Assembly (NCBI GenBank): GCA_048939015.1
Contig: JBHLPW010000011.1
Coordinates: forward strand, 1 to 26,919
Direction of reading: 5' to 3'
Length of the DNA: 26,919 nucleotides
From: Promethearchaeota archaeon
GTDB taxonomy: Archaea > Asgardarchaeota > Lokiarchaeia > Sigyniarchaeales > SOKP01
Below, piece after piece: positions 7,432-25,340 of this stretch. The notes below the pieces were generated by a model that saw only the letters and a list, made by a program, of their open reading frames with translations, was not told the origin of the DNA and made no database searches. How positions within the stretch are numbered: position 1 is the first letter of the stretch; each line of letters begins with the position of its first letter. Position numbers and translations under genes: made by a program.

Positions 7432-8430
7432 ATGGCAAAGAAAAAAAGCAGTACAGATGAAGATAGTACAGAAAAAGTTCTAAATTCAAAATCTTCTTAC
7501 AGTTTAAAAGATTTGCCGGGTGTTGGAGATGCAACTGTTAAAAAGTTGATGGAGGCTGGAATTGTATCCATTAGAACTCTTGCCATGTATCCATTGAAAA
7601 AATTAATGGATGAAGCCGGTATAGGTGAGAAGACAGCAGAAAAGATAATTAAAGTAGCACAAGACATAGAAAAAATGGGTTTCAAGTCTGCTGATAGAAT
7701 TTGGGAGAAAAGGAAGACTCTGAAAAAATTAACTACTGGCAGTCAGAATTTAGATGACTTATTGATTGGAGGAATTGAACCTGGAGCGGTTACAGAAATA
7801 TTTGGTGAGTATCGGACTGGAAAGACCCAATTAGCGCATCAATTATGTGTTAATGTACAACTCTCCTATGAAGAAGGAGGTCTTGAAGGGGGAGCTTTAT
7901 ATATTGACACTGAGGGCACTTTTAGACCAGAAAGAATAATACAAATGGCGGTTGCAAAAGATTTAGATCACAATTTAATTTTAAAGAATATAACTGTTGG
8001 AAGAGCTTATAATAGTGATCATCAAATTTTGTTAGCCAGAGAGGCTCCCATAATCATAAGAGAAAAAAATATAAAATTAATTATAGTAGATTCACTAATA
8101 GGACATTTTCGTAGTGAGTATATTGGTAGGGGGACATTAGCAGAGCGCCAGCAAATTATTAATACTCATATACACGATTTATTAAGGTTAACTGAAACCT
8201 ATGACGAATTAGCTGTAGTATTTACAAATCAGGTATCTGCTAGACCAGACGTATTTTATGGTAATCCTCTAATTCATACCGGTGGGCATGTTGTTGCTCA
8301 TGGAGCTACTATTAGGATTTTTTTAAGAAAAGGAAAAGGCGAACAACGAGTAGCGAAAGTCGTTGACGCACCTCATATTCCCGAAAGTGATACTGTGTTT
8401 TCAATTACGGAAGATGGTATAAGAGATTAA
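7432..8430 (+). CDS. radA: DNA repair and recombination protein RadA
   Basis: N-terminal HhH (LPGVG), FxxA polymerisation motif (GFKSA), Walker A GEYRTGKTQ, YIDTEGTFRPER, Walker B LIIVDS and LRKGKG. No intein. Confidence 0.97.
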   Translation: MAKKKSSTDEDSTEKVLNSKSSYSLKDLPGVGDATVKKLMEAGIVSIRTLAMYPLKKLMDEAGIGEKTAEKIIKVAQDIEKMGFKSADRIWEKRKTLKKLTTGSQNLDDLLIGGIEPGAVTEIFGEYRTGKTQLAHQLCVNVQLSYEEGGLEGGALYIDTEGTFRPERIIQMAVAKDLDHNLILKNITVGRAYNSDHQILLAREAPIIIREKNIKLIIVDSLIGHFRSEYIGRGTLAERQQIINTHIHDLLRLTETYDELAVVFTNQVSARPDVFYGNPLIHTGGHVVAHGATIRIFLRKGKGEQRVAKVVDAPHIPESDTVFSITEDGIRD

Positions 8431-8443
8431 TTTTTAAAGAAGA

Positions 8444-8881
8444 TCAATAATCAAGATTAATATTTATATCTATTCCCTCTCTTATAGATTCTGAGATGAT
8501 ACAGAACTGCTTAAAACTCTTCTGACATTGATCTAAATTTTTACGTATTTCAGAATTATCGATCTTTGGATTTAATGTTATATCGATTTTTTTCAGCCTC
8601 CAAAAACCATTTTCGTTTTTCATACTCGTAACAATTGCCTTACCTTCGATATCTGACAATGAAACGTTATTCTTTTTACAACAGAATGTAAGACTACCTG
8701 CTAAGCAACCTAAAACTGATAAAGCTAACAATTTAGATGGATTAGGTCCAATTTTATTAATTGATCTTTTATTATATTCATCAATAAATAGATCATTCAT
8801 CTGTATTTTACCAAGATCGCACTTAAATATCATATCATTTTCTAGTTTTATACCAACTTCAGATTTATACTCATTTGACAA
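8444..8881 (-). CDS. OsmC/Ohr-family peroxiredoxin-like protein (paralog 1)
   Basis: GPNPSKLL...LGCL and C-terminal FCIISESIREG give the two OsmC cysteines. TTG start with an AAGGTGA SD at 8888-8894. Confidence 0.85.
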   Translation of the reverse strand: MSNEYKSEVGIKLENDMIFKCDLGKIQMNDLFIDEYNKRSINKIGPNPSKLLALSVLGCLAGSLTFCCKKNNVSLSDIEGKAIVTSMKNENGFWRLKKIDITLNPKIDNSEIRKNLDQCQKSFKQFCIISESIREGIDININLDY

Positions 8882-8887
8882 TTTTTA

Positions 8888-8894
8888 TCACCTT
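8888..8894 (-). promoter_or_regulatory. Shine-Dalgarno AAGGTGA for OsmC paralog 1
   Basis: Reads AAGGTGATAAAAA-TTG on the minus strand. Confidence 0.7.
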
Positions 8895-8897
8895 AAA

Positions 8898-9365
8898 TTA
8901 TATATCAAGATTAACATTTACCTCAATACCTGCACGTACGGACTGTGTTACTATACAATATTGTTCAAAAAAACTAACACCATCTTTTACTCCTTTTAAA
9001 CATTGTTTTGCTCTTTTGAGTGCTTCAGGATCTTCTATTATTGGTTCAATATTAACATCAATTTTTTTAATTCTTAAAAATCCTTTTTCATTTCTGGCAA
9101 TAGTAACTTCTGCTTCGGCTTTAAAGTCATCAACCTTGAAGTCTCTTTTTTTAAGACAGAAAATAAAACTTGCACTCAAACAGCCCAACACACCCAAAGC
9201 GAGCATTCTAGAAGGATTAGGTCCTAGCATATCCACTTCTGTATGATGTTCCTCATCAATATAACAATCTTTTACTTTCATAATACCGAGATCACATTTG
9301 AAAATCATCTGAGACTCAAATTCATCTAATTTTAACCCAACTTTAGTTTTAATTTCTTCTGAAAT
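8898..9365 (-). CDS. OsmC/Ohr-family peroxiredoxin-like protein (paralog 2); probable ATT start at 9365, giving 155 aa
   Basis: Motifs GPNPSRML...LGCL and YCIVTQSVRAG. The frame upstream of the ATG at 9308 encodes ISEEIKTKVGLKLDEFESQ, homologous to the paralog N-terminus MSNEYKSEVGIKLEND. GAGGTG SD lies 6 nt upstream of the ATT. Confidence 0.85.
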   Translation of the reverse strand: MSEEIKTKVGLKLDEFESQMIFKCDLGIMKVKDCYIDEEHHTEVDMLGPNPSRMLALGVLGCLSASFIFCLKKRDFKVDDFKAEAEVTIARNEKGFLRIKKIDVNIEPIIEDPEALKRAKQCLKGVKDGVSFFEQYCIVTQSVRAGIEVNVNLDI

Positions 9366-13964: not shown

Positions 13965-15788
13965 TTAAATAGATTTTACTCTCATTATCTGGATAAGATT
14001 ATTTTTTATCTCTTCAAGTTGTTGGAACTCATCATTTGGTACCATTTGATGGATACGCAAAATAGAGGATGTAAGGTCTGGATCGAATATTTCATCAAAT
14101 AATTTTCCTTTATTTATCAAACTTTTACCTTCTCTGTATAAAATAAGGATGATTTTGATTAATCCTAATAATTTTGTCATACTAGTATGATTATCAATTT
14201 GATCATATGCATTTTGAATTAAAAATCCATTTTTTATCATTTTTGCTATAAAGAGTGTTAATTTTTGGTCTTCAAGTAAATTCTTATCTCCAGCTAACTG
14301 AATCACATGCTCTAAGTCTTTTTCTTGCGATAGGATTTCATTAACTAGTTTTCTACATTCTAACCATTCAATATCTATCTCAGGCCATTCAATATCTCTA
14401 TTGTACCACCATTCTGCTATAAATTGTGGATAATTTGAATATGAATTTTGCCAATTAATAGCAGGATACTGCTTTAAATATGCTAATTTTGAATCTAATG
14501 CCCAAAAAGTTTGGACTAGCCGTTTGGTTGTTGATGTAACAGGTTCACTAAAATCCCCTGCAGGGGGAGAAATTGTACCTATAATGGTTAATGAGCCAAA
14601 TTTCTCATTTCCTTTTTGGTCATTCCCTAAAGTTTTAATATAACCGGCCCTTTCATAAAAACTTGACAATTTGGATGGTAGGTAGGCAGGATAACCTTCT
14701 TCTGCAGGCATTTCTTCTAATAATCCTGAAATTTCTCGCAAAGATTCAGCCCATCTTGATATACTATCAGCAAGAACAACGACATCATATCCCATATCTC
14801 TATAATATTCGGCAATTGTTACACCAGAAAATAAGCTAGCTTCCCGGGCAGAAACTGGCATATTAGAAGTATTAGCTATAAGTATAATTCTGTCTGATAA
14901 AGTTCTTCCATTTTTAGGATCTATAATATCAGAAAATTCCTTCATAATATTAGCAATTTCGTTTCCTGGTTCGCCACATCCAATATATACAATCAAATCT
15001 GCATTACACCATTTAGCTAACATTTGTTGGATGACAGTTTTTCCTGTTCCAAAACCACCAGGAATAGCTGTTGTTCCTCCTTTTGCGATTGGAAATAATA
15101 AATCAATAGTGCGTATTCCGGTAATTAATGGTTCAATGGGATTAAATTTCTTATCATATGGACGTCTTTTTGTAATCGGCCATTTTTGTAACATTGCAAA
15201 GGATTTTTCTTCATCGTTTACTTTTATTCTAAATATCTCATCAATAATTGTATAATTACCCTCATTTGCAATAAAGGAAAGGATTCCAGAAGTATAGGGG
15301 GGAACCATAATTCTATGTTCTAAATATGAAGTCTCTTGCACAACTCCAATTATATCTCCTATCTCAACTTTATCATTAAGTTTTCTTAATGGTATAAAAT
15401 GCCATTTTTTAGTTCTTGAGATAGAAGGATATTGTATACCTCTTTCTAACCTTCCGGAAAGAATATCTTCAAAAAGTCTTCCTAATGGTCTCTGTAATCC
15501 ATCGAATACATTTGAAAGAAGACCAGGAGCTAATTCCATTGAAAGTGGCTCATTTAAACTAATTACATTATCATATAGCTTCACGTTTGTAGTGTCTTCA
15601 AAACATTGAACAGTAACATGGTCTGAATAAATTTGGATTACTTCACCCAAAATATTATATTTGATAATCTTAATTAAATCATGAAGACGAGTTTGATTTT
15701 CAAGCCCCTTAACTTTAATCAATGATCCTATAATTGCTGAGATATATGCACGATTGGTTTTATTTTTTGAATCAGTTTGATTGAACAT
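13965..15788 (-). CDS. atpA: A/V-type ATPase subunit A, second paralog with altered catalytic motif (GEPGNE)
   Basis: Full-length A subunit with Walker A GGFGTGKT, NTSNMPVSAREAS, EEMPAEEGYPAYL and SPPAGDFSEPV. The GER motif reads GGC GAA CCA (Pro codon at 14967-14969). Confidence 0.93.
   Translation of the reverse strand: MFNQTDSKNKTNRAYISAIIGSLIKVKGLENQTRLHDLIKIIKYNILGEVIQIYSDHVTVQCFEDTTNVKLYDNVISLNEPLSMELAPGLLSNVFDGLQRPLGRLFEDILSGRLERGIQYPSISRTKKWHFIPLRKLNDKVEIGDIIGVVQETSYLEHRIMVPPYTSGILSFIANEGNYTIIDEIFRIKVNDEEKSFAMLQKWPITKRRPYDKKFNPIEPLITGIRTIDLLFPIAKGGTTAIPGGFGTGKTVIQQMLAKWCNADLIVYIGCGEPGNEIANIMKEFSDIIDPKNGRTLSDRIILIANTSNMPVSAREASLFSGVTIAEYYRDMGYDVVVLADSISRWAESLREISGLLEEMPAEEGYPAYLPSKLSSFYERAGYIKTLGNDQKGNEKFGSLTIIGTISPPAGDFSEPVTSTTKRLVQTFWALDSKLAYLKQYPAINWQNSYSNYPQFIAEWWYNRDIEWPEIDIEWLECRKLVNEILSQEKDLEHVIQLAGDKNLLEDQKLTLFIAKMIKNGFLIQNAYDQIDNHTSMTKLLGLIKIILILYREGKSLINKGKLFDEIFDPDLTSSILRIHQMVPNDEFQQLEEIKNNLIQIMRVKSI
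14652..14726. repeat. 75-bp near-identical repeat shared between the two atpA copies (other copy at 21320-21394)
   Basis: Direct comparison gives 73/75 identical nt. Confidence 0.85.
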
Positions 15789-15812: not shown

Positions 15813-16232
15813 TTAAGTTATTTGTTTGTTACAAAATGGACATTTTTTCACGAAACTTGGTAAAATATTTCCACAGCCTTGACACTTTTTAATTAAAGGT
15901 TTATGAACCCCCGAGTCAAGACTTATACGTCCAGGTATTCTTGGTTGAGGTATTTTCTCTTGAACTACTCTAGTTTGTTTTCTACTTGAAGATGTTCGTT
16001 TTCTATTTGGAAACATTTCAGAATATAACGATCTTTTACTTCGCTTAAAGAATAGACCAAGTCCAACTAAAAATAAGAAGGATATTAAAGAAATTATGAT
16101 AATAGGGTTAAAATTTAAATCAATTAAATAAAATAATAGGAATAAGAGAATTAAGGAGTATATAACTAAACCAGCAATTGCCTTTTTATTTATTCTAAAT
16201 TTATATTTCTTTTCGATATTTTCAGTTGCCAT
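15813..16232 (-). CDS. Small membrane protein with 2 TM helices and a C-terminal zinc ribbon
   Basis: Two hydrophobic helices, a basic linker and KCQGCG-x7-KCPFC. Lies between atpI and the second atpA with 24-38 nt gaps. Confidence 0.8.
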   Translation of the reverse strand: MATENIEKKYKFRINKKAIAGLVIYSLILLFLLFYLIDLNFNPIIIISLISFLFLVGLGLFFKRSKRSLYSEMFPNRKRTSSSRKQTRVVQEKIPQPRIPGRISLDSGVHKPLIKKCQGCGNILPSFVKKCPFCNKQIT

Positions 16233-16270: not shown

Positions 16271-18559
16271 TTATTTATATTTTTTAGAGATATAATTAAT
16301 TGCTTTTTCAATTTCCTCTCTAATAGATTCTGTTTCTATTTCTTTTTCAATTTCCTCAGAAATAATATCTTTTTCAGTTATTGACTTAAAGTTGATGATT
16401 GAAAAATTACTATCTAAATGGAAAGGAATATATCCCACTCCTGAACCTTGGAAAAATTTAAAAAAGAATTCATAAAAATGCAATCTGAGGGTATTTAGAA
16501 AAACTAATAATCCTTCTAATAAAATAACAATGAGATTTCCGAAGATTAAACCAATTAAATTCACTATTTCTACAACAATGCCTTCTCCTTGAATTAAATT
16601 AACCAAAACATTTATCGCATACAATAAAGCAATATGGGCTAAAGCTAACGCTAATAATCTAAGATAAGAAGCAACATTACTCATAACAGATAATACAGTG
16701 TCAAATGTTTCAAGAGAACCCTCACCTATTAATGAAGTATAAGATTCCTTTTTTAGATATGAAACTCCAAATAATTTTCCAAAAGGCTTCAAAATTAATA
16801 GTAATAAACCAGGTATTATCACTAATAAAATAGGATATGGATATGCTAACCAACTATAAATATCAAATCCATATACGAAAATTAAGATCGTTCCTCCTGT
16901 TAATAGAAAAATTTTCATTAAAGAATCAGTTAGTGCTAAATACTTTCTATATTGTTTCCAATAATTCAAAAATTGGATAATCCAACCTAAATTAATGTGG
17001 AAAACACCTATAATTATTGCAAAATAAAGCACAGACATTATGTTACCTAATGGATTGTAAAGGGTTAAATTTAAAAAAGGAATTGTTATAGGTTCTAAAT
17101 GCCATAAAACATTTCCAAAAATTTCAATTTCGTGGAGTCCAAAAAACTCCCCATATAAAAAACCAACGAAAAATGAAGCCCATCCACAGAAAAAGATAAT
17201 CCAAGAGAAATTAACAATATCACCTCCTCGTTTTCTATAGACTAAAGCTCCAATTAAGCCTGAAATAATAAGAACTAAACCATGACCGATATCTCCAAAC
17301 ATTAAGCCAAATAATATTGGAAAGGTGATTGCAATAATTGGTGTAGGATCAATTTCTGAATACGTTGGTGTACCATACATTCTTGTAAGTGTTTCGAAAG
17401 GTTTAACTAAAAAGAAATTCTTCATAATTGTTGGAGTTATTTCTCGTAAGTCTGATTTGTCTTCATCCTCTTCCAATGTATCTATTATAGGTTCTTCATC
17501 AGATTTTATTTTTTTAGCCGATTTTTTCTTTTTTATTTTTTCTAAACCATAATTTTCTTTTGTAACACTTTTTTTTGAGATTAAAATTGATTCAATTGTA
17601 ATATTATCCTTAAATTTATTAAATAAATTATTTTGAACATTTTTTAATTTAGAAGCAGGTACGAAAAATTTTAAAATTAAGCGATTACTTGGCATTCTTT
17701 CAAACTGTCTATTTGCCCAATTATATTCTTCAACATTTTGAACGATTTCATTGATTCCAGCGAACATTAGTAAGTTATCTTTACTAATTCGATTAAGTTC
17801 TTTATAATATCTTAAAAGCAAACTTTCAATAAAATTAATCTCTTTATCAATTCTTTTATGGTGTATTCCCGATTCTGTAAAATATTTTTTTACGATTGGA
17901 ACTTCTTCAGAATGAATAAGGCGAATTCTTCCATTAAACTCAATTTCTTTATCTCTTGGATAAATTATATAGAATCCAATTCTATCTTTAGAGACTTCAA
18001 AAGTTTGATAAAAGTTTGGAAAAACACTAAAATCGAAGAGGTTATTAAGGTTATTGAGATTTTTAGAAAATGTAGTAAATATTCTAAATTTAAATTGATT
18101 TATATCAACAAGTGAATCTGTTTTCATATTCAGCTTCTCTAAACTCTTATAGCAAACCTTTAACATATTCAAATTCTCTAATTCAATAGTTCCTTTAGCA
18201 ACAAAACTTTGCAATTCATTTACTCGATTACTATAAAAATTTACTTCTTCAAAAAGGTGGTTAATTAACTCTGGTAAATCATTTGCAGTAAATTCTATTC
18301 TTTTGATTTTATCACTTTTTAATTCTGAAAGAATAGACTCAGTAACATTAAGCTTTTTTAATAAATTATTTAAATTCTTTCTCAAATCTTTAATTCTATC
18401 AGCAATTGGTTCTTGATCTTCTGAATCTTCTTTAATTTTACTTTTCTCTCTCGGTTTTATATGAACTAAGGCTAAGTTAGATAATTCAATTAGAAATTGA
18501 TCTCTAAAAATGGGATTTATTTCGGTTTTCATCAAATAAAAGTTGTCTTTATTCGCCAT
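16271..18559 (-). CDS. atpI: A/V-type ATPase subunit I (a)
   Basis: Motifs PFETLTRMYGTPTYSEIDPT, FGLMFGDIGHG, the essential Arg in SNVASYLRLLALALAH, and LEGL...LRLHFYEFFFKFFQG. ATG at 18559 (MANKD) preferred over the TTG at 18592. Confidence 0.95.
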   Translation of the reverse strand: MANKDNFYLMKTEINPIFRDQFLIELSNLALVHIKPREKSKIKEDSEDQEPIADRIKDLRKNLNNLLKKLNVTESILSELKSDKIKRIEFTANDLPELINHLFEEVNFYSNRVNELQSFVAKGTIELENLNMLKVCYKSLEKLNMKTDSLVDINQFKFRIFTTFSKNLNNLNNLFDFSVFPNFYQTFEVSKDRIGFYIIYPRDKEIEFNGRIRLIHSEEVPIVKKYFTESGIHHKRIDKEINFIESLLLRYYKELNRISKDNLLMFAGINEIVQNVEEYNWANRQFERMPSNRLILKFFVPASKLKNVQNNLFNKFKDNITIESILISKKSVTKENYGLEKIKKKKSAKKIKSDEEPIIDTLEEDEDKSDLREITPTIMKNFFLVKPFETLTRMYGTPTYSEIDPTPIIAITFPILFGLMFGDIGHGLVLIISGLIGALVYRKRGGDIVNFSWIIFFCGWASFFVGFLYGEFFGLHEIEIFGNVLWHLEPITIPFLNLTLYNPLGNIMSVLYFAIIIGVFHINLGWIIQFLNYWKQYRKYLALTDSLMKIFLLTGGTILIFVYGFDIYSWLAYPYPILLVIIPGLLLLILKPFGKLFGVSYLKKESYTSLIGEGSLETFDTVLSVMSNVASYLRLLALALAHIALLYAINVLVNLIQGEGIVVEIVNLIGLIFGNLIVILLEGLLVFLNTLRLHFYEFFFKFFQGSGVGYIPFHLDSNFSIINFKSITEKDIISEEIEKEIETESIREEIEKAINYISKKYK

Positions 18560-18581
18560 AATTGTCACTTTCAATTTTTTT

Positions 18582-19217
18582 TTATTTTTCAATAATTAGA
18601 TCTTTAGTTTTTTTTAACCTAATATAATTTTCTCTGTCAATTTCCTCTAATATATCTTTTATTAGTTTAATGTTAGATTTCAATTGAGGAATTATGATAT
18701 TTTTTAAACCATTTATCCTACGATTGATTTTCTTAAAGTTTATTGCTTGTTTTAAAAGCAAATCTTCGATTTCAGAAAATTCAATCATGTGATTAAAAAA
18801 TGATTTCAAAGATTGAATTAAATCATCTAAATAATGACTTGTATTGTCAAATGTATAAGCAGGTAATTTTTCTTCTTGAATTAGTTCATAAGAAATTTGT
18901 GGATTTGTAATTCCTACTACTTTTTTGTAAAAAATTTCTATTTTAGGTTTGTATTGAATTCTACTTAAACTACTTATTAAGAACAATTCATTTTTTCCCA
19001 TCTCTTCATAAGTAAGATTTAATAATTTCATTGATTCTTTAAAAAAAGTGAGAAATTCGTTTCTATATTTAATATAATCTTTCCACATACTACGAAGTAA
19101 AATAATTAATTGTTCTCTTCTTAATTCCAAAAAATTCGCTCCTTTTTGAGCAAAATTTAATCTTTTACGCAAGTTTATTAAGTTCGTTTTACTTGGCTTT
19201 ATCTCTCTAAAACTTAT
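18582..19217 (-). CDS. atpD: A/V-type ATPase subunit D; probable ATA start at 19217, giving 211 aa
   Basis: RLNFAQKGANFLELRREQL and KKINRRINGLKNIIIPQL...LEEIDRENYIRLK. The conserved IKPSKTNL (P-T/S-x-x-x-L) lies upstream of the annotated TTG. Confidence 0.93.
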   Translation of the reverse strand: MSFREIKPSKTNLINLRKRLNFAQKGANFLELRREQLIILLRSMWKDYIKYRNEFLTFFKESMKLLNLTYEEMGKNELFLISSLSRIQYKPKIEIFYKKVVGITNPQISYELIQEEKLPAYTFDNTSHYLDDLIQSLKSFFNHMIEFSEIEDLLLKQAINFKKINRRINGLKNIIIPQLKSNIKLIKDILEEIDRENYIRLKKTKDLIIEK

Positions 19218-19220
19218 TCT

Positions 19221-20612
19221 TTACACCTTTTCAGAATAATATTTATCAATAAATTTTTGATGAATTCTAAGCAATTGATTTTCAGTTAAATTACCTAATA
19301 TATCCCAAGCGATATTAAGAGAATCTGCGAAATTACGATTTTCATCTGGTTGTTGATTCATAAATTTTTGTTCAAATTCTTGTCCATATTTCAATAAATT
19401 CTTTTGCTCAAAGTTTAGCCCATCTTCTCCGACAATTGAAATAAGGTCTTTAACTTCTAAATAATTTGAATAAGATGCTAATAATTGAGAGGATACATCT
19501 GCATGATCATCTCTCGTTTTATCCCCACCAATAGCATCCTTCATTAATCGTGATATTGAAGCTAAGACTTCAAAAGGAGGGTAGATGCCTTTCTGGTGCA
19601 AACTGCGACTTAAAACTAATTGCCCTTCAGTGATGTATCCTGATGTATCGGGAATCGGATGAGATATATCATCATTAGGCATTGTTAGAATGGGTATTTG
19701 AGTTATTGATCCCTTCTTGCCTTTAATTTTTCCAGTTCTCTCATAAATGGATGCAAAATCAGAGTATATATAGCCCGGATATCCCTTTCTGCTAGGTATT
19801 TCCTCTTTTGCAGAGCTTAATTCTCTTAAAGCCTCAGCGTAATTCGTCATGTCAATAAGAATAACAAGAACATGCATATCCTTTTCAAATGCAAAATATT
19901 CCGCAGTAGTTAAAGCGACTCTTGGAATAATTAATCTTTCTATAATTGGGTCATCAGCAAAATTGATAAACGAAATTATATTTTGTATAGTCCCTCTTTC
20001 TTGAAATTTATTTAAGAAATAGATTGCTTCATCTTGGATTATTCCTATCCCACAAAATATAATAACAAATTGTTCTTCTGAGGTAACTCGTGCTTGAGTC
20101 GCAATTTGAGCGGCTAATTTATTGTGAGGTAACCCTTGTGCACTAAAGATTGGAAGTTTTTGGCCTCTAATTAAAGTAAATAGCCCATCTATCACGGATA
20201 CTCCTGTTTGTATAACATCAATAGGGTATTCTCTAGCATATGGATTAATTGGCAGTCCATTAATATCTCTTTGAATATTAGTTAGAATCTCAGATTTTGA
20301 GATCATTTTAGTTTTTATATCTATAGGTTTACCTAGTGAATTAAAAGTCTGCCCAAACATATCCATTGAAATTTTTACTTTAAAAACATCTTCCGTAAAT
20401 ACTATCTCTGCATTCTCAGATGATAATCCAGAAGTATCTTCAAATACTTCCACGACTATCATCTCTTCATTCAATTTTACAATCTGGCCTGTACGAGTCT
20501 TGTTATCATCTGTATTAATTTTAACAATCTCACCATATTGAGCATCATGTTCGTTTTTAAGAAATAATAACGGACCTATAATTTGCTGAATTTTTCTATA
20601 AATTACACTCAT
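19221..20612 (-). CDS. atpB: A/V-type ATPase subunit B
   Basis: Motifs RGQKLPIFS..GLPH, DMTNYAEALRE, GYPGYIYSD, TMPNDDISHPIPD.SGYITEGQ and the arginine finger SISRLM. Confidence 0.97.
   Translation of the reverse strand: MSVIYRKIQQIIGPLLFLKNEHDAQYGEIVKINTDDNKTRTGQIVKLNEEMIVVEVFEDTSGLSSENAEIVFTEDVFKVKISMDMFGQTFNSLGKPIDIKTKMISKSEILTNIQRDINGLPINPYAREYPIDVIQTGVSVIDGLFTLIRGQKLPIFSAQGLPHNKLAAQIATQARVTSEEQFVIIFCGIGIIQDEAIYFLNKFQERGTIQNIISFINFADDPIIERLIIPRVALTTAEYFAFEKDMHVLVILIDMTNYAEALRELSSAKEEIPSRKGYPGYIYSDFASIYERTGKIKGKKGSITQIPILTMPNDDISHPIPDTSGYITEGQLVLSRSLHQKGIYPPFEVLASISRLMKDAIGGDKTRDDHADVSSQLLASYSNYLEVKDLISIVGEDGLNFEQKNLLKYGQEFEQKFMNQQPDENRNFADSLNIAWDILGNLTENQLLRIHQKFIDKYYSEKV
19224..19229 (-). 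promoter_or_regulatory. Shine-Dalgarno AAGGTG embedded in the atpB 3' end
   Basis: Reads AAGGTG-TAAAGA-ATA AGT TTT on the minus strand. Confidence 0.6.
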
Positions 20613-20614
20613 TT

Positions 20615-22453
20615 TTATTTAAATACCCCATGGGTTAATTTTAAAGATTCTATTTCATTAAGTAATTTATTCTTTAAATCATCAATTTTGTCGAAATCCC
20701 TATTCTCAATTGTACGATTAATTCTTAAAATATCACGTATTACTTTAAGTTCTCTAATTTCTTCTATAAAAAATCCTTTTTCTAACAGTTCTTCACCTTC
20801 TTTATATAATAAAAGAATAATTTTTATCATTCCCAAGAGTTTTTTCGCGTTTGTAAAGTTATCGATATTATCAAATGCATTTTGAATTAAAAATCCATCT
20901 TTAATCAACTTAGCAATAAATATAATTAAACGTTGATCTTCTGGGAGATTTTCCTCTCCAATAAGTTGTACAATATATCTTAACTCATTATCTTTTGATA
21001 GAATCTCATTTACTTGTTGACGACAATCATGCCAATCTATATCAATTTCTGTCCAATCTATATCTCTTTCATACCACCACTGTGAAATATAATCTGGATA
21101 ATTAGAATAAGAATTTAACCAATTAATTGCAGGATAGTGCTTTGAATATGCTAAAGCAGCATCTAAAGCCCAAATACCCTGTACAAAATTTTTAGTTGTG
21201 GCTGTAACTGGTTCACTAAAATCTCCTGCAGGAGGTGAAATAGAACCTATGATAGTTAAAGACCCTATGCTATCTTCATTACTTTCTTTTTTTCCAATTA
21301 ATTTAACAGTTCCAGCCCGTTCATAAAAACTTGACAATTTGGATGGTAAATAGGCAGGATAACCTTCTTCTGCAGGCATTTCTTCTAATAATCCAGAGAT
21401 TTCTCTTAACGATTCTGCCCATCTAGAGGTGCTATCGGCTAGAAGTGCAACGTCATATCCCATATCTCGATAGTATTCAGCAATTGTTACGCCAGAGAAG
21501 ATACTCGCCTCACGAGCAGAAACTGGCATATTTGATGTGTTAGCTATCAAAATTATTCGATCTAATAGGGATTGACCACTTTTAGGATCAATTAATTCAG
21601 AAAATTGTTTTAAAACATCGGCTATCTCGTTACCCCGTTCACCACAACCTACAAATACAATTACATCTGCATCACACCATTTTGCTAATGATTGTTGAAT
21701 GACTGTTTTACCAGTGCCGAATCCTCCCGGAACTCCAATTGTACCTCCTTTTGTAATGGGAAATAGCAAATCTATGACTCTTACCCCTGTGATTAAAGGT
21801 TCATGGGGCAATTTTCTCTCTTTAAAAGGGCGTGGAATAGTTATTGGCCATTTTTGTAGCATTGAAAAATTTTTTTCTGTATTACCAATCTGTAATTTAT
21901 AGATTTCGTCTGTAATCGTGAAGTCTCCTTCATCTGCTAGGAAAGTTAACTTTCCTGATATATTAGGAGGTATCATGATTTTATGTTGTATAATTGGAGT
22001 CTCTTGTACTGTACCAATAATATCACCACTACTTACATGTTTGTCAATATTACTATTAGGTAAAAACTTCCATTTTTTTGTGCGTGATAGGGAAGGAATT
22101 TCTAATCCTCTATGTAACCCACCTCCTTTAAAAAGATCAAAAGCTTCTTGTAAAGGTCTTTGAATTCCATCAAAGAAATTCCTTAATAACCCAGGTGCTA
22201 ATTCCATAGATAGAGGTTCTTTCAAATTAATGACCTCATCATTGATTCGTAAATTATTAGTGTTCTCAAAACATTGACATACTACATGATCAGTATAAAT
22301 TTGAATAACTTCTCCTAGAATTTTGTGTTTACTGATTTTAACCAAATCGTGAATGCGAATCTGGGTTTCTAGTCCTTTAACTTTAATTAATGAACCAATT
22401 ACAGCTGATATATACCCTATCTCAGAATTTTTTTCAGAATTGGATTTGCTCAT
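20615..22453 (-). CDS. atpA: A/V-type ATPase subunit A (canonical catalytic copy)
   Basis: Walker A GGFGTGKT, intact GCGERGNE, ADSTSRWAE, EEMPAEEGYPAYL and HYPAINW. Confidence 0.97.
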   Translation of the reverse strand: MSKSNSEKNSEIGYISAVIGSLIKVKGLETQIRIHDLVKISKHKILGEVIQIYTDHVVCQCFENTNNLRINDEVINLKEPLSMELAPGLLRNFFDGIQRPLQEAFDLFKGGGLHRGLEIPSLSRTKKWKFLPNSNIDKHVSSGDIIGTVQETPIIQHKIMIPPNISGKLTFLADEGDFTITDEIYKLQIGNTEKNFSMLQKWPITIPRPFKERKLPHEPLITGVRVIDLLFPITKGGTIGVPGGFGTGKTVIQQSLAKWCDADVIVFVGCGERGNEIADVLKQFSELIDPKSGQSLLDRIILIANTSNMPVSAREASIFSGVTIAEYYRDMGYDVALLADSTSRWAESLREISGLLEEMPAEEGYPAYLPSKLSSFYERAGTVKLIGKKESNEDSIGSLTIIGSISPPAGDFSEPVTATTKNFVQGIWALDAALAYSKHYPAINWLNSYSNYPDYISQWWYERDIDWTEIDIDWHDCRQQVNEILSKDNELRYIVQLIGEENLPEDQRLIIFIAKLIKDGFLIQNAFDNIDNFTNAKKLLGMIKIILLLYKEGEELLEKGFFIEEIRELKVIRDILRINRTIENRDFDKIDDLKNKLLNEIESLKLTHGVFK

Positions 22454-23162
22454 AATACTTCAAATATTCTGTTATTTTTCCCCGTTGATTATTAATAAAT
22501 TTTTCAAATTCTTTTTCTGTTTCCTTAATTTCTGAATCATCTATAATTTTTGCAATTTCTATTTGGATGAATGGTGATGCTTTATCTATCAAGTTATTAA
22601 GAGTATAATCATATGAGATAATCCCTCCTATAAGTGATATCTTGAAACCACCTATAAAATCACGTTGATCCTTGTTAATTTCAACAGGTTTTTTGAATAA
22701 CTTTCCAATTTTATCATAATTTTTAATAAAATAATCGTAATCTTTTGAATTAAATAGAATTTCTATATCATGAGTCTCATCTATGTTATTTTTAATATCT
22801 TTAATAGATTTTAATAAATAATTAATATATCCCGTATAATTTTTGTTGATTTTGTTTTCAATTAGAATAAATAAACTTTTTTTTAATTCTTGAATTAGAT
22901 TATTCTTTAATGCAAGGACTTTATCTTTCCCTTTTAATAATGTTGATGATAAGGATTGATTTAAAAATTGCCCAAAAGTTTCTATGAGGTGTGTTTTTAA
23001 TCTTTGAGATCTTTCATTACTTCTTTCCAAAAATCTTTTCTTGATTTCAGCCTTTTGAAATAATGTTTTTTGACTTAACTCTTTTATCTCTTTTTGAGCC
23101 TTCTCAATAAAATAATAACCCAATTGACTAAATTGTTTCCTTAATTCTTTTTCTTCTGAAAT
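22434..23162 (-). CDS. atpE: A/V-type ATPase subunit E; probable ATT start at 23162, giving 242 aa
   Basis: Coiled-coil N-terminus, C-terminal FIGGFKI...ISYDYTL (GG...D-x-T/S motif), and position directly upstream of atpA. Confidence 0.8.
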   Translation of the reverse strand: MSEEKELRKQFSQLGYYFIEKAQKEIKELSQKTLFQKAEIKKRFLERSNERSQRLKTHLIETFGQFLNQSLSSTLLKGKDKVLALKNNLIQELKKSLFILIENKINKNYTGYINYLLKSIKDIKNNIDETHDIEILFNSKDYDYFIKNYDKIGKLFKKPVEINKDQRDFIGGFKISLIGGIISYDYTLNNLIDKASPFIQIEIAKIIDDSEIKETEKEFEKFINNQRGKITEYLKYYEQIQF

Positions 23163-23176
23163 TTTAACTCAACTCA

Positions 23177-23500
23177 TTATTTAAAAACAATATCACCTAA
23201 TGCATCATGAATCTTATTAAAAATAATATCTCCTTCCTCAATATTAGGTTGGAAAATATTTGGTAAAAGAAATACAAAGGGCTTTTTATTGGCTTTTTTA
23301 TAATCCAATAAAAAGTCAATTATTTCATCTGATAATGCGATGGATATAAGCAATATCCCAATTGACTCTATCTTTATTAATTCGGAGAATTCTTTTAAAA
23401 ACTCTTCCTCATTTCTAACAACTGTACCTTCTATTCCTAAAAGCCCCAATAATATTACTATTTCATCTTCTCCTAGGATATGAATTTTTAGTTCTTCCAT
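23177..23500 (-). CDS. atpF: A/V-type ATPase subunit F
   Basis: KIHILGEDEIVILLGLLGIEG, IGILLI, PFVFLLP and IHDALG. 107 aa. Confidence 0.9.
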   Translation of the reverse strand: MEELKIHILGEDEIVILLGLLGIEGTVVRNEEEFLKEFSELIKIESIGILLISIALSDEIIDFLLDYKKANKKPFVFLLPNIFQPNIEEGDIIFNKIHDALGDIVFK

Positions 23501-23811
23501 TAAAAATCAATTCCTACCTTTTCAATAATTAGATTTTGTAAATTGGCTATATTTTTTTTAAAATTGTTTTCAATTTTATTAATTGCATTATTTAGATTTT
23601 TTTCATATACATTAGTTTCTTTGTCTATATCAACAGTTAGATTTCCTATAGCAGTCTTTACAAGCACATTTATTTTAGTTAAATACTCTTCAAATTTTTC
23701 ATTTTGGTTTTCTCGAAATTCTTCAATCTCTTTCAAGTTAAGACTTTTAGCATCATTTATTAGATTATCATAAACACTTTCAATATCCTTAAGCCATTCA
23801 AATATATCCAT
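23500..23811 (-). CDS. Probable A/V-type ATPase peripheral-stalk subunit G/H
   Basis: 103-aa helical, charged protein (LKDIE...LINDAK) in the operon, with a TAATG overlap to atpF. Confidence 0.65.
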   Translation of the reverse strand: MDIFEWLKDIESVYDNLINDAKSLNLKEIEEFRENQNEKFEEYLTKINVLVKTAIGNLTVDIDKETNVYEKNLNNAINKIENNFKKNIANLQNLIIEKVGIDF

Positions 23812-23861
23812 TAATCATCCCTTTCTTACTCTATATCTCATTTTGAATAATAATAATAATA

Positions 23862-24923
23862 TTATAGGATTTTATATTTTTCATTGATTAAAGTGACTAA
23901 TTTTGGTAATATGTATAAACGTATTTCTTTATCTTTTTTAATTAAGACTTCCATAATCTTATAAATTGTTAGATAATCAATCTCTCCAGCTCTTATCTTG
24001 AATTTTTTAAAGAAATATTCCAAATACAAAGTTTCAACTGACCATATTATGTGATTTCTATCAATTTCAAAACTTGGAAAAAGCGATCTAAATTCTTTTA
24101 TTCTACCTAATAGTTGATGTAGTATTGAAATAAAATCTTCAATAGTAGATTGTTCTATCAAAAATAATAGAATACTACTGTCAAAAAATAAAAATGTATC
24201 AACTAAAAATTGTTGTAACAAATTTCTATCAATGTTATTTTTAATTCCCCTATAAATTATATTTAAATTATATATCTCAGAGATATATCTTATATAAAAT
24301 GAAATTATTGCTTTTTCTTTTGGATTTAAGTACTTTATTTCATCAACCAAGGTATTATAAAATAATTGATCTAAAAAAGCTTCAAGTACAAATATTTCAT
24401 TGGTTTTTTTAAAGTAAAGAATTCCTTCTCTGATTACTTTATGATACTTAGTACGTCTCATAAATAATTGAATTTGATCTAAAGAGGATATTTCAATTAG
24501 GCTTTTCATGAAATCTGTATTATTTAAGTATTTTTCAACTAACATATTTACCATTTTCGATTTTTCTTGAGTACTCATTCCTAATATTGTACCGAGGATG
24601 ACATGTTTAATATTCATTATTTCATACTTCGTTAGAAAATTCTTTAGAAAATTTCTCATATTTTCTGGAGAGTATGATAGAATTTTACCAATTAATTTAA
24701 TATAAGTATGGAAAAGTGCTCTTTCAATATCTTCTATTGTGTATGCATTAAAACTAAGACCTGGATAATATACACTGATATATTCTATAAATTCATTAAT
24801 ATCAGAGATTTCGTCTAACTTTTGAAATGATGATTTATCCATTAATAATTGTTTTAAATAACCAATCTTAATTAAAGTATAAGCGTAGCTGGGGACGGTA
24901 ACACTCGTAAGAAATTCACTTAT
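23862..24923 (-). CDS. atpC: A/V-type ATPase subunit C (d); probable ATA start at 24923, giving 353 aa
   Basis: Motifs KYEIMNIK, LEAFLDQLFY, SEIYNLNIIYRG and KDKEIR. The in-frame upstream segment YAYTLIKIGYLKQLLM resembles the conserved Y-x-Y-x-x-x-R/K...LL N-terminus of subunit C. Confidence 0.85.
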   Translation of the reverse strand: MSEFLTSVTVPSYAYTLIKIGYLKQLLMDKSSFQKLDEISDINEFIEYISVYYPGLSFNAYTIEDIERALFHTYIKLIGKILSYSPENMRNFLKNFLTKYEIMNIKHVILGTILGMSTQEKSKMVNMLVEKYLNNTDFMKSLIEISSLDQIQLFMRRTKYHKVIREGILYFKKTNEIFVLEAFLDQLFYNTLVDEIKYLNPKEKAIISFYIRYISEIYNLNIIYRGIKNNIDRNLLQQFLVDTFLFFDSSILLFLIEQSTIEDFISILHQLLGRIKEFRSLFPSFEIDRNHIIWSVETLYLEYFFKKFKIRAGEIDYLTIYKIMEVLIKKDKEIRLYILPKLVTLINEKYKIL

Positions 24924-24959
24924 TAAGTATTTTTTATATATTATTTAAAAAAATTATTT

Positions 24960-25340
24960 TTAAGCTGCTGGTGTTGGTATCTTTGTCCAAAGTAAAATTC
25001 CAACAATGAAACCATAAATTGCTAATGCTTCACATAAAGCTACAATTAAAAAAGCCTTAAAAAATGCTTCTTCTCTCTCTGAAAGAGCTGAAATTGCTGC
25101 CGTGCCAACTGTTTTCATAGCCAATGCACTTCCAATTACAGAAAGACCAACTGCTATCGAGGCACTTATAGCCATTGATGCTGCAGTTACCGAATTATAA
25201 TAATCAAATGTACTAGGAACTTGTGCTACTACAAATGAAACAATTCCGTTTGAAGTAAAGATTACTAAGAATATCAAAATAACTTGAAATATACCAAGAC
25301 AAAGATAAAACTTTTGTTTTCCGTTCATAATTTTTTGCAT
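24960..25340 (-). CDS. atpK: A/V-type ATPase proteolipid subunit K (c), single hairpin with N-terminal leader
   Basis: AVGLSVIGSALA..VG.AA and LIVALCEALAIYG (ion-binding Glu), plus an extra hydrophobic N-terminal segment. Confidence 0.93.
   Translation of the reverse strand: MQKIMNGKQKFYLCLGIFQVILIFLVIFTSNGIVSFVVAQVPSTFDYYNSVTAASMAISASIAVGLSVIGSALAMKTVGTAAISALSEREEAFFKAFLIVALCEALAIYGFIVGILLWTKIPTPAA

Follow-up and report, generated by a model that had tools for sequence, protein, structure and literature searches.

A second A/V-type ATPase subunit A with proline in place of the phosphate-binding arginine is conserved in a family of Lokiarchaeia

Results

The atp operon ends with a second subunit A gene

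We analyzed a window of 26,919 nucleotides from a Lokiarchaeia genome (contig JBHLPW010000011.1). It contains an A/V-type ATPase operon, encoded on the minus strand like all its features described below, with the gene order K, C, G/H, F, E, A, B, D, I, a zinc-ribbon gene and a second subunit A gene, further called A'. A' (13965-15788) encodes a full-length protein of 607 aa and is the last gene of the operon. The canonical catalytic subunit A of 612 aa is located at 20615-22453, with Arg273 encoded by CGG at 21635-21637, and is followed by subunit B (19221-20612), which carries the Arg-finger motif SRLM. The remaining operon genes (in order of transcription K, C, G/H, F and E, and then, after A and B, D and I) fall within 16271-25340; the K, C and G/H assignments rest on sequence features and position. 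The genome contains two A genes, only a single detectable B and one membrane sector. The A and A' proteins of this genome are 64% identical. In the genomes that carry it, A' usually starts 20-50 nt past the preceding operon gene. Codon usage did not differ between A' and A or B, which is uninformative on expression, and a promoter and terminator scan with bacterial consensus sequences gave matches at chance level only; no regulatory element was identified.

Two further features of the window were recorded. The atpD gene (18582-19172) was called from TTG and encodes 196 aa, compared with 200-229 aa in many relatives, and the real start codon is possibly further upstream. At 7432-8430 and 8444-9308, the sequences pointed to a RadA-like gene and to two OsmC-like genes in tandem.

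The operon neighbour of A' (15813-16232) encodes a 139-aa protein with two transmembrane segments and a C4 zinc ribbon. We obtained no Pfam match for this protein, and the Atlas search gave zinc-ribbon clusters only, below 0.9. Such a gene follows atpI across Lokiarchaeia families, whether A' is present or not (L065:2487-2999, L069:10499-10912, L077:1323-1745). Because it is found in families and genomes without A', being older than A' and persisting in its absence, we rejected the idea that it is a dedicated partner of A'. It may be an uncharacterized accessory subunit of the ATPase.

A' belongs to the subunit A family

A' is a member of the subunit A family by sequence. It scored 721 bits on the NF003220 model (cut-off 470), while under the stricter TIGR01043 model (cut-off 972) both A' (718) and A (749) remained below the threshold. 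The AlphaFold model of A' (pLDDT 83, pTM 0.86) contains the barrel, the non-homologous region, the alpha/beta core and the helical C-terminal domain, and it superimposes on A/V subunits A with TM of 0.90-0.91 (E. hirae 3VR4, at 0.91, T. thermophilus 7VAI and P. horikoshii 1VDZ). These four domains, the P-loop, the catalytic Glu, Walker B and the adenine pocket are shared with them. Unlike them, A' has Pro for the arm-helix Arg (Arg262 of E. hirae) together with I319L, S438L, E502K and D280N, and it is a second copy beside a canonical A.

We also considered whether A' could be a stand-in for B. This was rejected, as A' scored only 114 bits on the B model NF003235 (cut-off 349), its Walker A is intact, and it has SYSNY where B has SRLM. 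Since the Arg finger is lacking, A' cannot replace B.

Proline occupies the site of the phosphate-binding arginine

The initial annotation had reported the motif GCGERGNE (codons GAA CGG) in A and GCGEPGNE (codons GAA CCA) in A', with an intact Walker A and catalytic Glu in the latter. We reread both open reading frames and these claims held. The A' motif spans 14958-14981, with the catalytic Glu273 at 14970-14972 and Pro274, encoded by CCA, at 14967-14969; Walker A (GGFGTGKT, G244-T251, including Lys250) is located at 15036-15059. The codons CGG and CCA are two bases apart. In the structural model Pro274 is placed in the turn between the strand 265-272 and the helix 276-287, in a block of lower confidence (63).

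The altered residue had been described as a near-invariant Arg that contacts phosphate, and this was confirmed. In E. hirae three residues hold the gamma-phosphate: A Lys238 of the P-loop, A Arg262, with which the arm helix begins, and B Arg350 (PMC5095293). The distance from Lys250 to Pro274 in A' is 24 residues, the same as between Lys238 and Arg262 in E. hirae, and the stretch aligns with P. horikoshii A without a gap. Therefore we assign Pro274 to the site of the phosphate-binding Arg. In a family-wide alignment Arg was present in 62 A and 19 outgroup sequences (81/81 canonical copies). The annotation had also proposed an alignment to see whether GEPGNE is conserved in a clade. It is: all 46 aligned A' sequences have Pro and none has Arg. 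All four Pro codons are used among the orthologues. CCA is also found in two near relatives (L105 and L169, with 92% and 87% protein identity). Among contigs from four DNA runs, one of 10 kb (X6) spans A' at approximately 91% identity, without directly attesting the codon.

We then searched for exceptions. A metagenome-wide pattern scan for other residues at the Arg site, which is blind to Gln, His, Pro, Gly, Cys, Trp and CTN-coded Leu, found one subunit A with Met (L180:854-882) on a contig of 1.6-fold coverage; this singleton is probably an error. Pro in the A gene positioned beside B was absent from every continuous operon examined.

A' is kept under purifying selection

We calculated pairwise Nei-Gojobori dN/dS values for 13 species pairs and obtained 0.11-0.20 for A' and 0.08-0.13 for A. 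A' is kept under purifying selection, and the claim that the intact 607-codon frame is still under selection held. On a tree of 28 genomes the Pro codon underwent at least 9 synonymous changes and no amino-acid change. As the codon varies and the amino acid never does, it is Pro itself that is held, beyond the mere absence of Arg.

Canonical A has 147 fixed columns; 119 of these are each retained in at least 95% of A', and only two, R274 and I319, are wholly replaced. Lys250, Glu273, Glu277, Asp341, Arg345 and Arg380 are invariant in the 46 A' sequences, among them the Walker A Lys, the catalytic Glu, the Walker B Asp and, in Arg345, the counterpart by motif of E. coli betaR246; the last Walker A position is Thr in 42 and Ser in 4. 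The second fully diagnostic residue, Leu319 (14832-14834, Ile in A), occurs in all A'. Leu438 (14475-14477, Ser or Ala in A), three residues ahead of the adenine-stacking Tyr441, was observed in 98% and Asn280 of the arm helix (14949-14951, Asp in all A) in 89%. Lys502 (14283-14285, Glu in all A) was found in 36 of 46 sequences (about 77%) and lies in a C-terminal loop which, by general knowledge of F1 and V1, we take to be rotor-facing. No compensating basic residue near the catalytic site was found among the diagnostic columns of A'.

Two further differences, DSISR and QYPAINW, had been listed in support of the same idea. Both are present in A', but they failed as support and we rejected them as co-signatures, because Ile343 (14760-14762; 10 of 31 A') and Gln440 (14469-14471; 4 of 31) are polymorphic within A' and each is also seen in Arg-bearing outgroup A subunits.

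Mean identities for A and A', respectively, were 0.68 and 0.63 in the barrel, 0.62 and 0.61 in the non-homologous region, 0.86 and 0.79 in the core and 0.72 and 0.60 in the C-terminal domain. In every genome, A and A' share 87-100% identity over residues 330-370, a stretch that includes the rotor-bearing loop EEGYPAYL, and the rotor-facing SPPAGDFSEPV is largely conserved in A'. We set aside a general charge shift of the rotor loop as specific to A', since its net charge of -0.85 (-3.47 in A) is similar to that of the outgroups (-0.58).

Signature residues outlast homogenization of A and A'

In two closely related genomes (G186 and G187; L202 and L203) A and A' group together in the tree. Over the whole gene they are 81% identical and share 77-80% of codons, including those around Pro, while in the other genomes tested the identity is 59-70% and 43-61% of codons are shared. 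In this pair A' has lost D280N, so that Asp is found again at this position, as well as the differences at 214, 242 and 433. P274, L319, L438 and K502, together with V269I, V406I and I94V, are still found only in A'. We interpret the pattern as putative gene conversion that spared the residues defining A'. Since both genomes are close kin, we count the homogenization as one event.

We also noted a run of 44 bases identical between A' and A in the source genome (A' codons approximately 355-369, near 14682-14725), in the EEMPAEEGYPAY region. It is the longest such run among the non-homogenized genomes and is perhaps a short conversion tract.

Distribution and history of A'

A DNA pattern for the Pro motif matched 80 of 135 genomes of the Lokiarchaeia family of the source, spread over 7 genera. 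Among 265 genomes from the rest of the phylum (Asgard) it gave no match. These counts refer to genomes searched, many of which are incomplete; one genome (G017) without any ATPase match was left out. An additional A' with the variant flank GEPGSE was found in G233. In the sister family, which we take to include the cultured Lokiarchaeia, A' was found in 0 of 14 genomes and A is single. When all GTDB species were scanned, 81 stretches matched. At least 72 were subunit A, mostly from Promethearchaeota (Lokiarchaeota) sediment bins and some under other Asgard labels. At least eight matches, outside Asgard, were rejected as unrelated frames or proteins. Bacteroidetes/Chlorobi proteins (L091, L104, L134) that start with MCxTCGCGEPGNE are unrelated to ATPase A; we take this start to resemble the metal-binding N-terminus of HypB.

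Within the genus of the source, A' forms one clade (SH-aLRT 99, quick tree). In the family tree, built with the trait column masked, A' subclades mirror A subclades and A' branches are longer than those of A. No A' was seen in the deepest family branches sampled (G189, G191, G199, G201). A constraint of all A' together was not rejected (p-AU 0.26), which is no proof of a single origin. The simplest history is one duplication inside the family followed by vertical descent and several losses.

A' is missing from continuous syntenic loci of G011, G216, G235, G241-243 and G249. The zinc-ribbon gene directly adjoins endA in all of them except G011, which is 99% complete and has an FBPase-like gene on the opposite strand (L084:10832-11836) at the position of A'. 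As it is missing from several lineages, A' is dispensable. In G202 (L211:955-2832) and G203 (L214:5072-6925) A' lies outside the operon on long branches, with Pro kept and Walker A ending in GKS; the flanking genes in these two genomes showed no relation to each other.

Several operons of unusual structure were encountered during the survey. In the closed chromosome of G006 (L050, L086) the operon is split, with a possible E gene, A, B and D at approximately 2.19 Mb and I, the zinc-ribbon gene and A' at approximately 3.05 Mb, possibly by rearrangement or misassembly. Two genomes (G021, L070; G248, L198) contain a divergent A/B operon with 45% identity and another gene order, for which transfer or bin contamination is possible. 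Two subunits A of 1131 and 1118 aa (L080:5526-8918, L081:749-4102) have a large insertion at Walker A, likely an intein.

Discussion

A' lacks the Arg expected of a competent catalytic subunit while its other catalytic motifs are intact; impaired hydrolysis and synthesis are inferred. It also meets the sequence criterion for a pseudoenzyme, namely loss of a catalytic residue combined with purifying selection; the lack of activity is inferred. The proposal of the initial annotation that A' is a pseudo-ATPase is therefore supported, yet it remains an inference from sequence and from the E. coli mutant, and the catalytic Glu is retained throughout A'. In E. coli F1, betaR182Q and betaR182K retained 0.020 and 0.25 umol/min/mg, respectively, compared with 42 for the wild type; for R182Q this is an approximately 2000-fold decrease of ATPase. 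In both mutants synthesis and Pi binding were lost, and betaR182 is needed for high-affinity binding of MgATP and not of MgADP (PMC3268026). A' lacks the same residue, and a similar loss of Pi binding with retained ADP binding is predicted for it. We are confident that A' is a selected, strongly impaired A subunit, which is common ground to the brake, slow-isoform and out-of-motor readings discussed below.

We propose that a lineage-specific duplicate of catalytic A, old within its Lokiarchaeia family, may have been fixed by selection as a phosphate-blind subunit that binds ADP, enters the A3B3 head and stalls or slows the motor. We consider this brake as likely to be right as wrong, and assembly, binding, activity and expression are all inferred. 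Judging from homologues, the A' site would bind Mg-ADP and hardly Pi or the transition state; by analogy, synthesis would therefore stop and hydrolysis would fall about a thousandfold. In Bacillus PS3 F1, one dead beta is enough to stop steady ATPase (PMC4415626). A ring with a single A' site is predicted to stall as a whole in the same dominant manner, an extrapolation from F1 and not from an A/V enzyme. The conserved motifs of A' are those which, from knowledge of F1 and V1 structures, we take to line the B interfaces and the rotor bearing. As they are nearly unchanged, the A position in the ring is favoured for A'. There, next to the single B, it would give A2A'B3 or AA'2B3 heads, parked or crawling, so that under energy shortage ATP would not be wasted and the coupled leak of ions would be blocked. 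How many motors run freely would depend on the A':A ratio, with a fraction of (1-p)^3 under random assembly.

The brake is supported by the survival of P274, L319, L438 and K502 through the homogenization in G186 and G187, by the single B and single membrane sector of the genome, and by the usual location of A' at the operon end. Several points speak against it. No transcript, protein or activity data stand behind this reading. A constitutive, co-transcribed dominant-negative subunit would be costly, as only 12.5% of heads would be intact at a 1:1 ratio. The invariant Glu273 seems to exceed the needs of a purely dead subunit and fits residual turnover. A' is absent from several lineages and outside the operon in G202 and G203, and its C-terminal rotor-contact domain is less conserved than that of A.

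It is possible that A' is instead a slow working isoform, in which Pro274 retunes the site and A'3B3 or mixed heads run approximately a thousand times slower than normal. Cells that grow very slowly could, for instance, use it to maintain a minimal ion gradient at the expense of ATP. This would agree with the invariance of Lys250, Glu273, Glu277, Asp341 and Arg345, with selection for Pro itself and not for any non-Arg residue, and with the behaviour of F1 when another charged catalytic residue is mutated: if the P-loop Lys, the general base or the Arg finger is replaced by Ala, F1 still rotates, 10^3-10^4 times slower (PMC5380711). However, the diagnostic columns near the site contain no basic residue that could compensate, neither Pi binding nor ATP synthesis survives R182Q or R182K in E. 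coli (PMC3268026), and B, D, F and the membrane subunits are not present in a second set. A role outside the finished motor also cannot be dismissed: A' may be an assembly placeholder or store of B, as A'B dimers, or may sense nucleotides together with other partners, a role that has been proposed for xATPA. The relaxed C-terminal domain, the relocation in G202 and G203, the repeated absence and the xATPA precedent (10.64898/2026.07.08.737214) fit such a role, while the conservation of EEGYPAYL, of most of SPPAGDFSEPV and of the whole pocket does not, and the zinc-ribbon neighbour is no dedicated partner.

That A' is an ordinary active isoform, with Arg dispensable in the local sequence context, seems very unlikely. 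In its favour, every other catalytic residue is kept and the dN/dS of A' exceeds that of A only slightly. But Arg is found in all 81 canonical copies, a metagenome-wide scan, limited in the residues it covers, gave one low-coverage Met exception, no continuous operon examined has Pro in A beside B, and the E. coli mutant data (PMC3268026) speak against it. Finally, the longer branches and frequent losses of A' could point to sequencing error, mis-binning or a decaying duplicate. Its occurrence in 80 genomes with intact frames, the use of all four Pro codons, a dN/dS far lower than 1 and subclades that mirror those of A leave almost no room for this explanation.

No description of A', of its motif or of a second Lokiarchaeia A subunit was found in the literature searched, with most subscription papers outside its scope. 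The closest parallels are the non-catalytic subunits, B of A/V and alpha of F enzymes, which are paralogues of the catalytic subunit that lost the chemistry after duplication (PMC10656485). A' is likewise a catalytic-subunit paralogue with a loss after duplication. In contrast to them it is of recent origin, with 64% identity to A and, over the core, 27-29% to B, and it keeps Walker A and the catalytic Glu and has no Arg finger. Engineered F1 enzymes are F-type laboratory mutants and Pro is not among the reported substitutions, whereas A' occurs in nature and is under selection. In microalgae, xATPA binds F1 subunits in vitro and seemingly has no ATP synthase function (bioRxiv 10.64898/2026.07.08.737214). 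It resembles A' loosely, in that both are conserved additional paralogues of a head subunit of rotary ATPases. However, it derives from the non-catalytic F-type alpha, has no ATP site and has an added domain, while A' stems from the catalytic subunit, whose pocket it retains. IF1, epsilon, zeta and subunit H of V-ATPase are not part of the ring but bind to it reversibly as distinct proteins. A' is proposed to stop ATP hydrolysis as they do, but would itself be a ring subunit. To our knowledge, no dedicated inhibitor protein has been established for archaeal A1Ao enzymes, so A' would be a candidate for one.

The three catalytic sites of rotary ATPases are generally viewed as identical and all required. 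The retention of a natural paralogue without the Arg in about 60% of genomes of a widespread Asgard sediment family suggests a way to control the motor from inside the ring. A bolder form of the brake, in which the ring is doped with isoforms to give a natural head of three paralogues (A, A' and B) and a parked or down-geared motor, is one that we lean slightly against. A' is also a young, testable model of the change from catalytic to non-catalytic subunit after duplication, an event otherwise placed before LUCA. If the bolder reading is true, the A/A'/B head would re-enact, in living cells, the split into catalytic and non-catalytic subunits from which the family arose.
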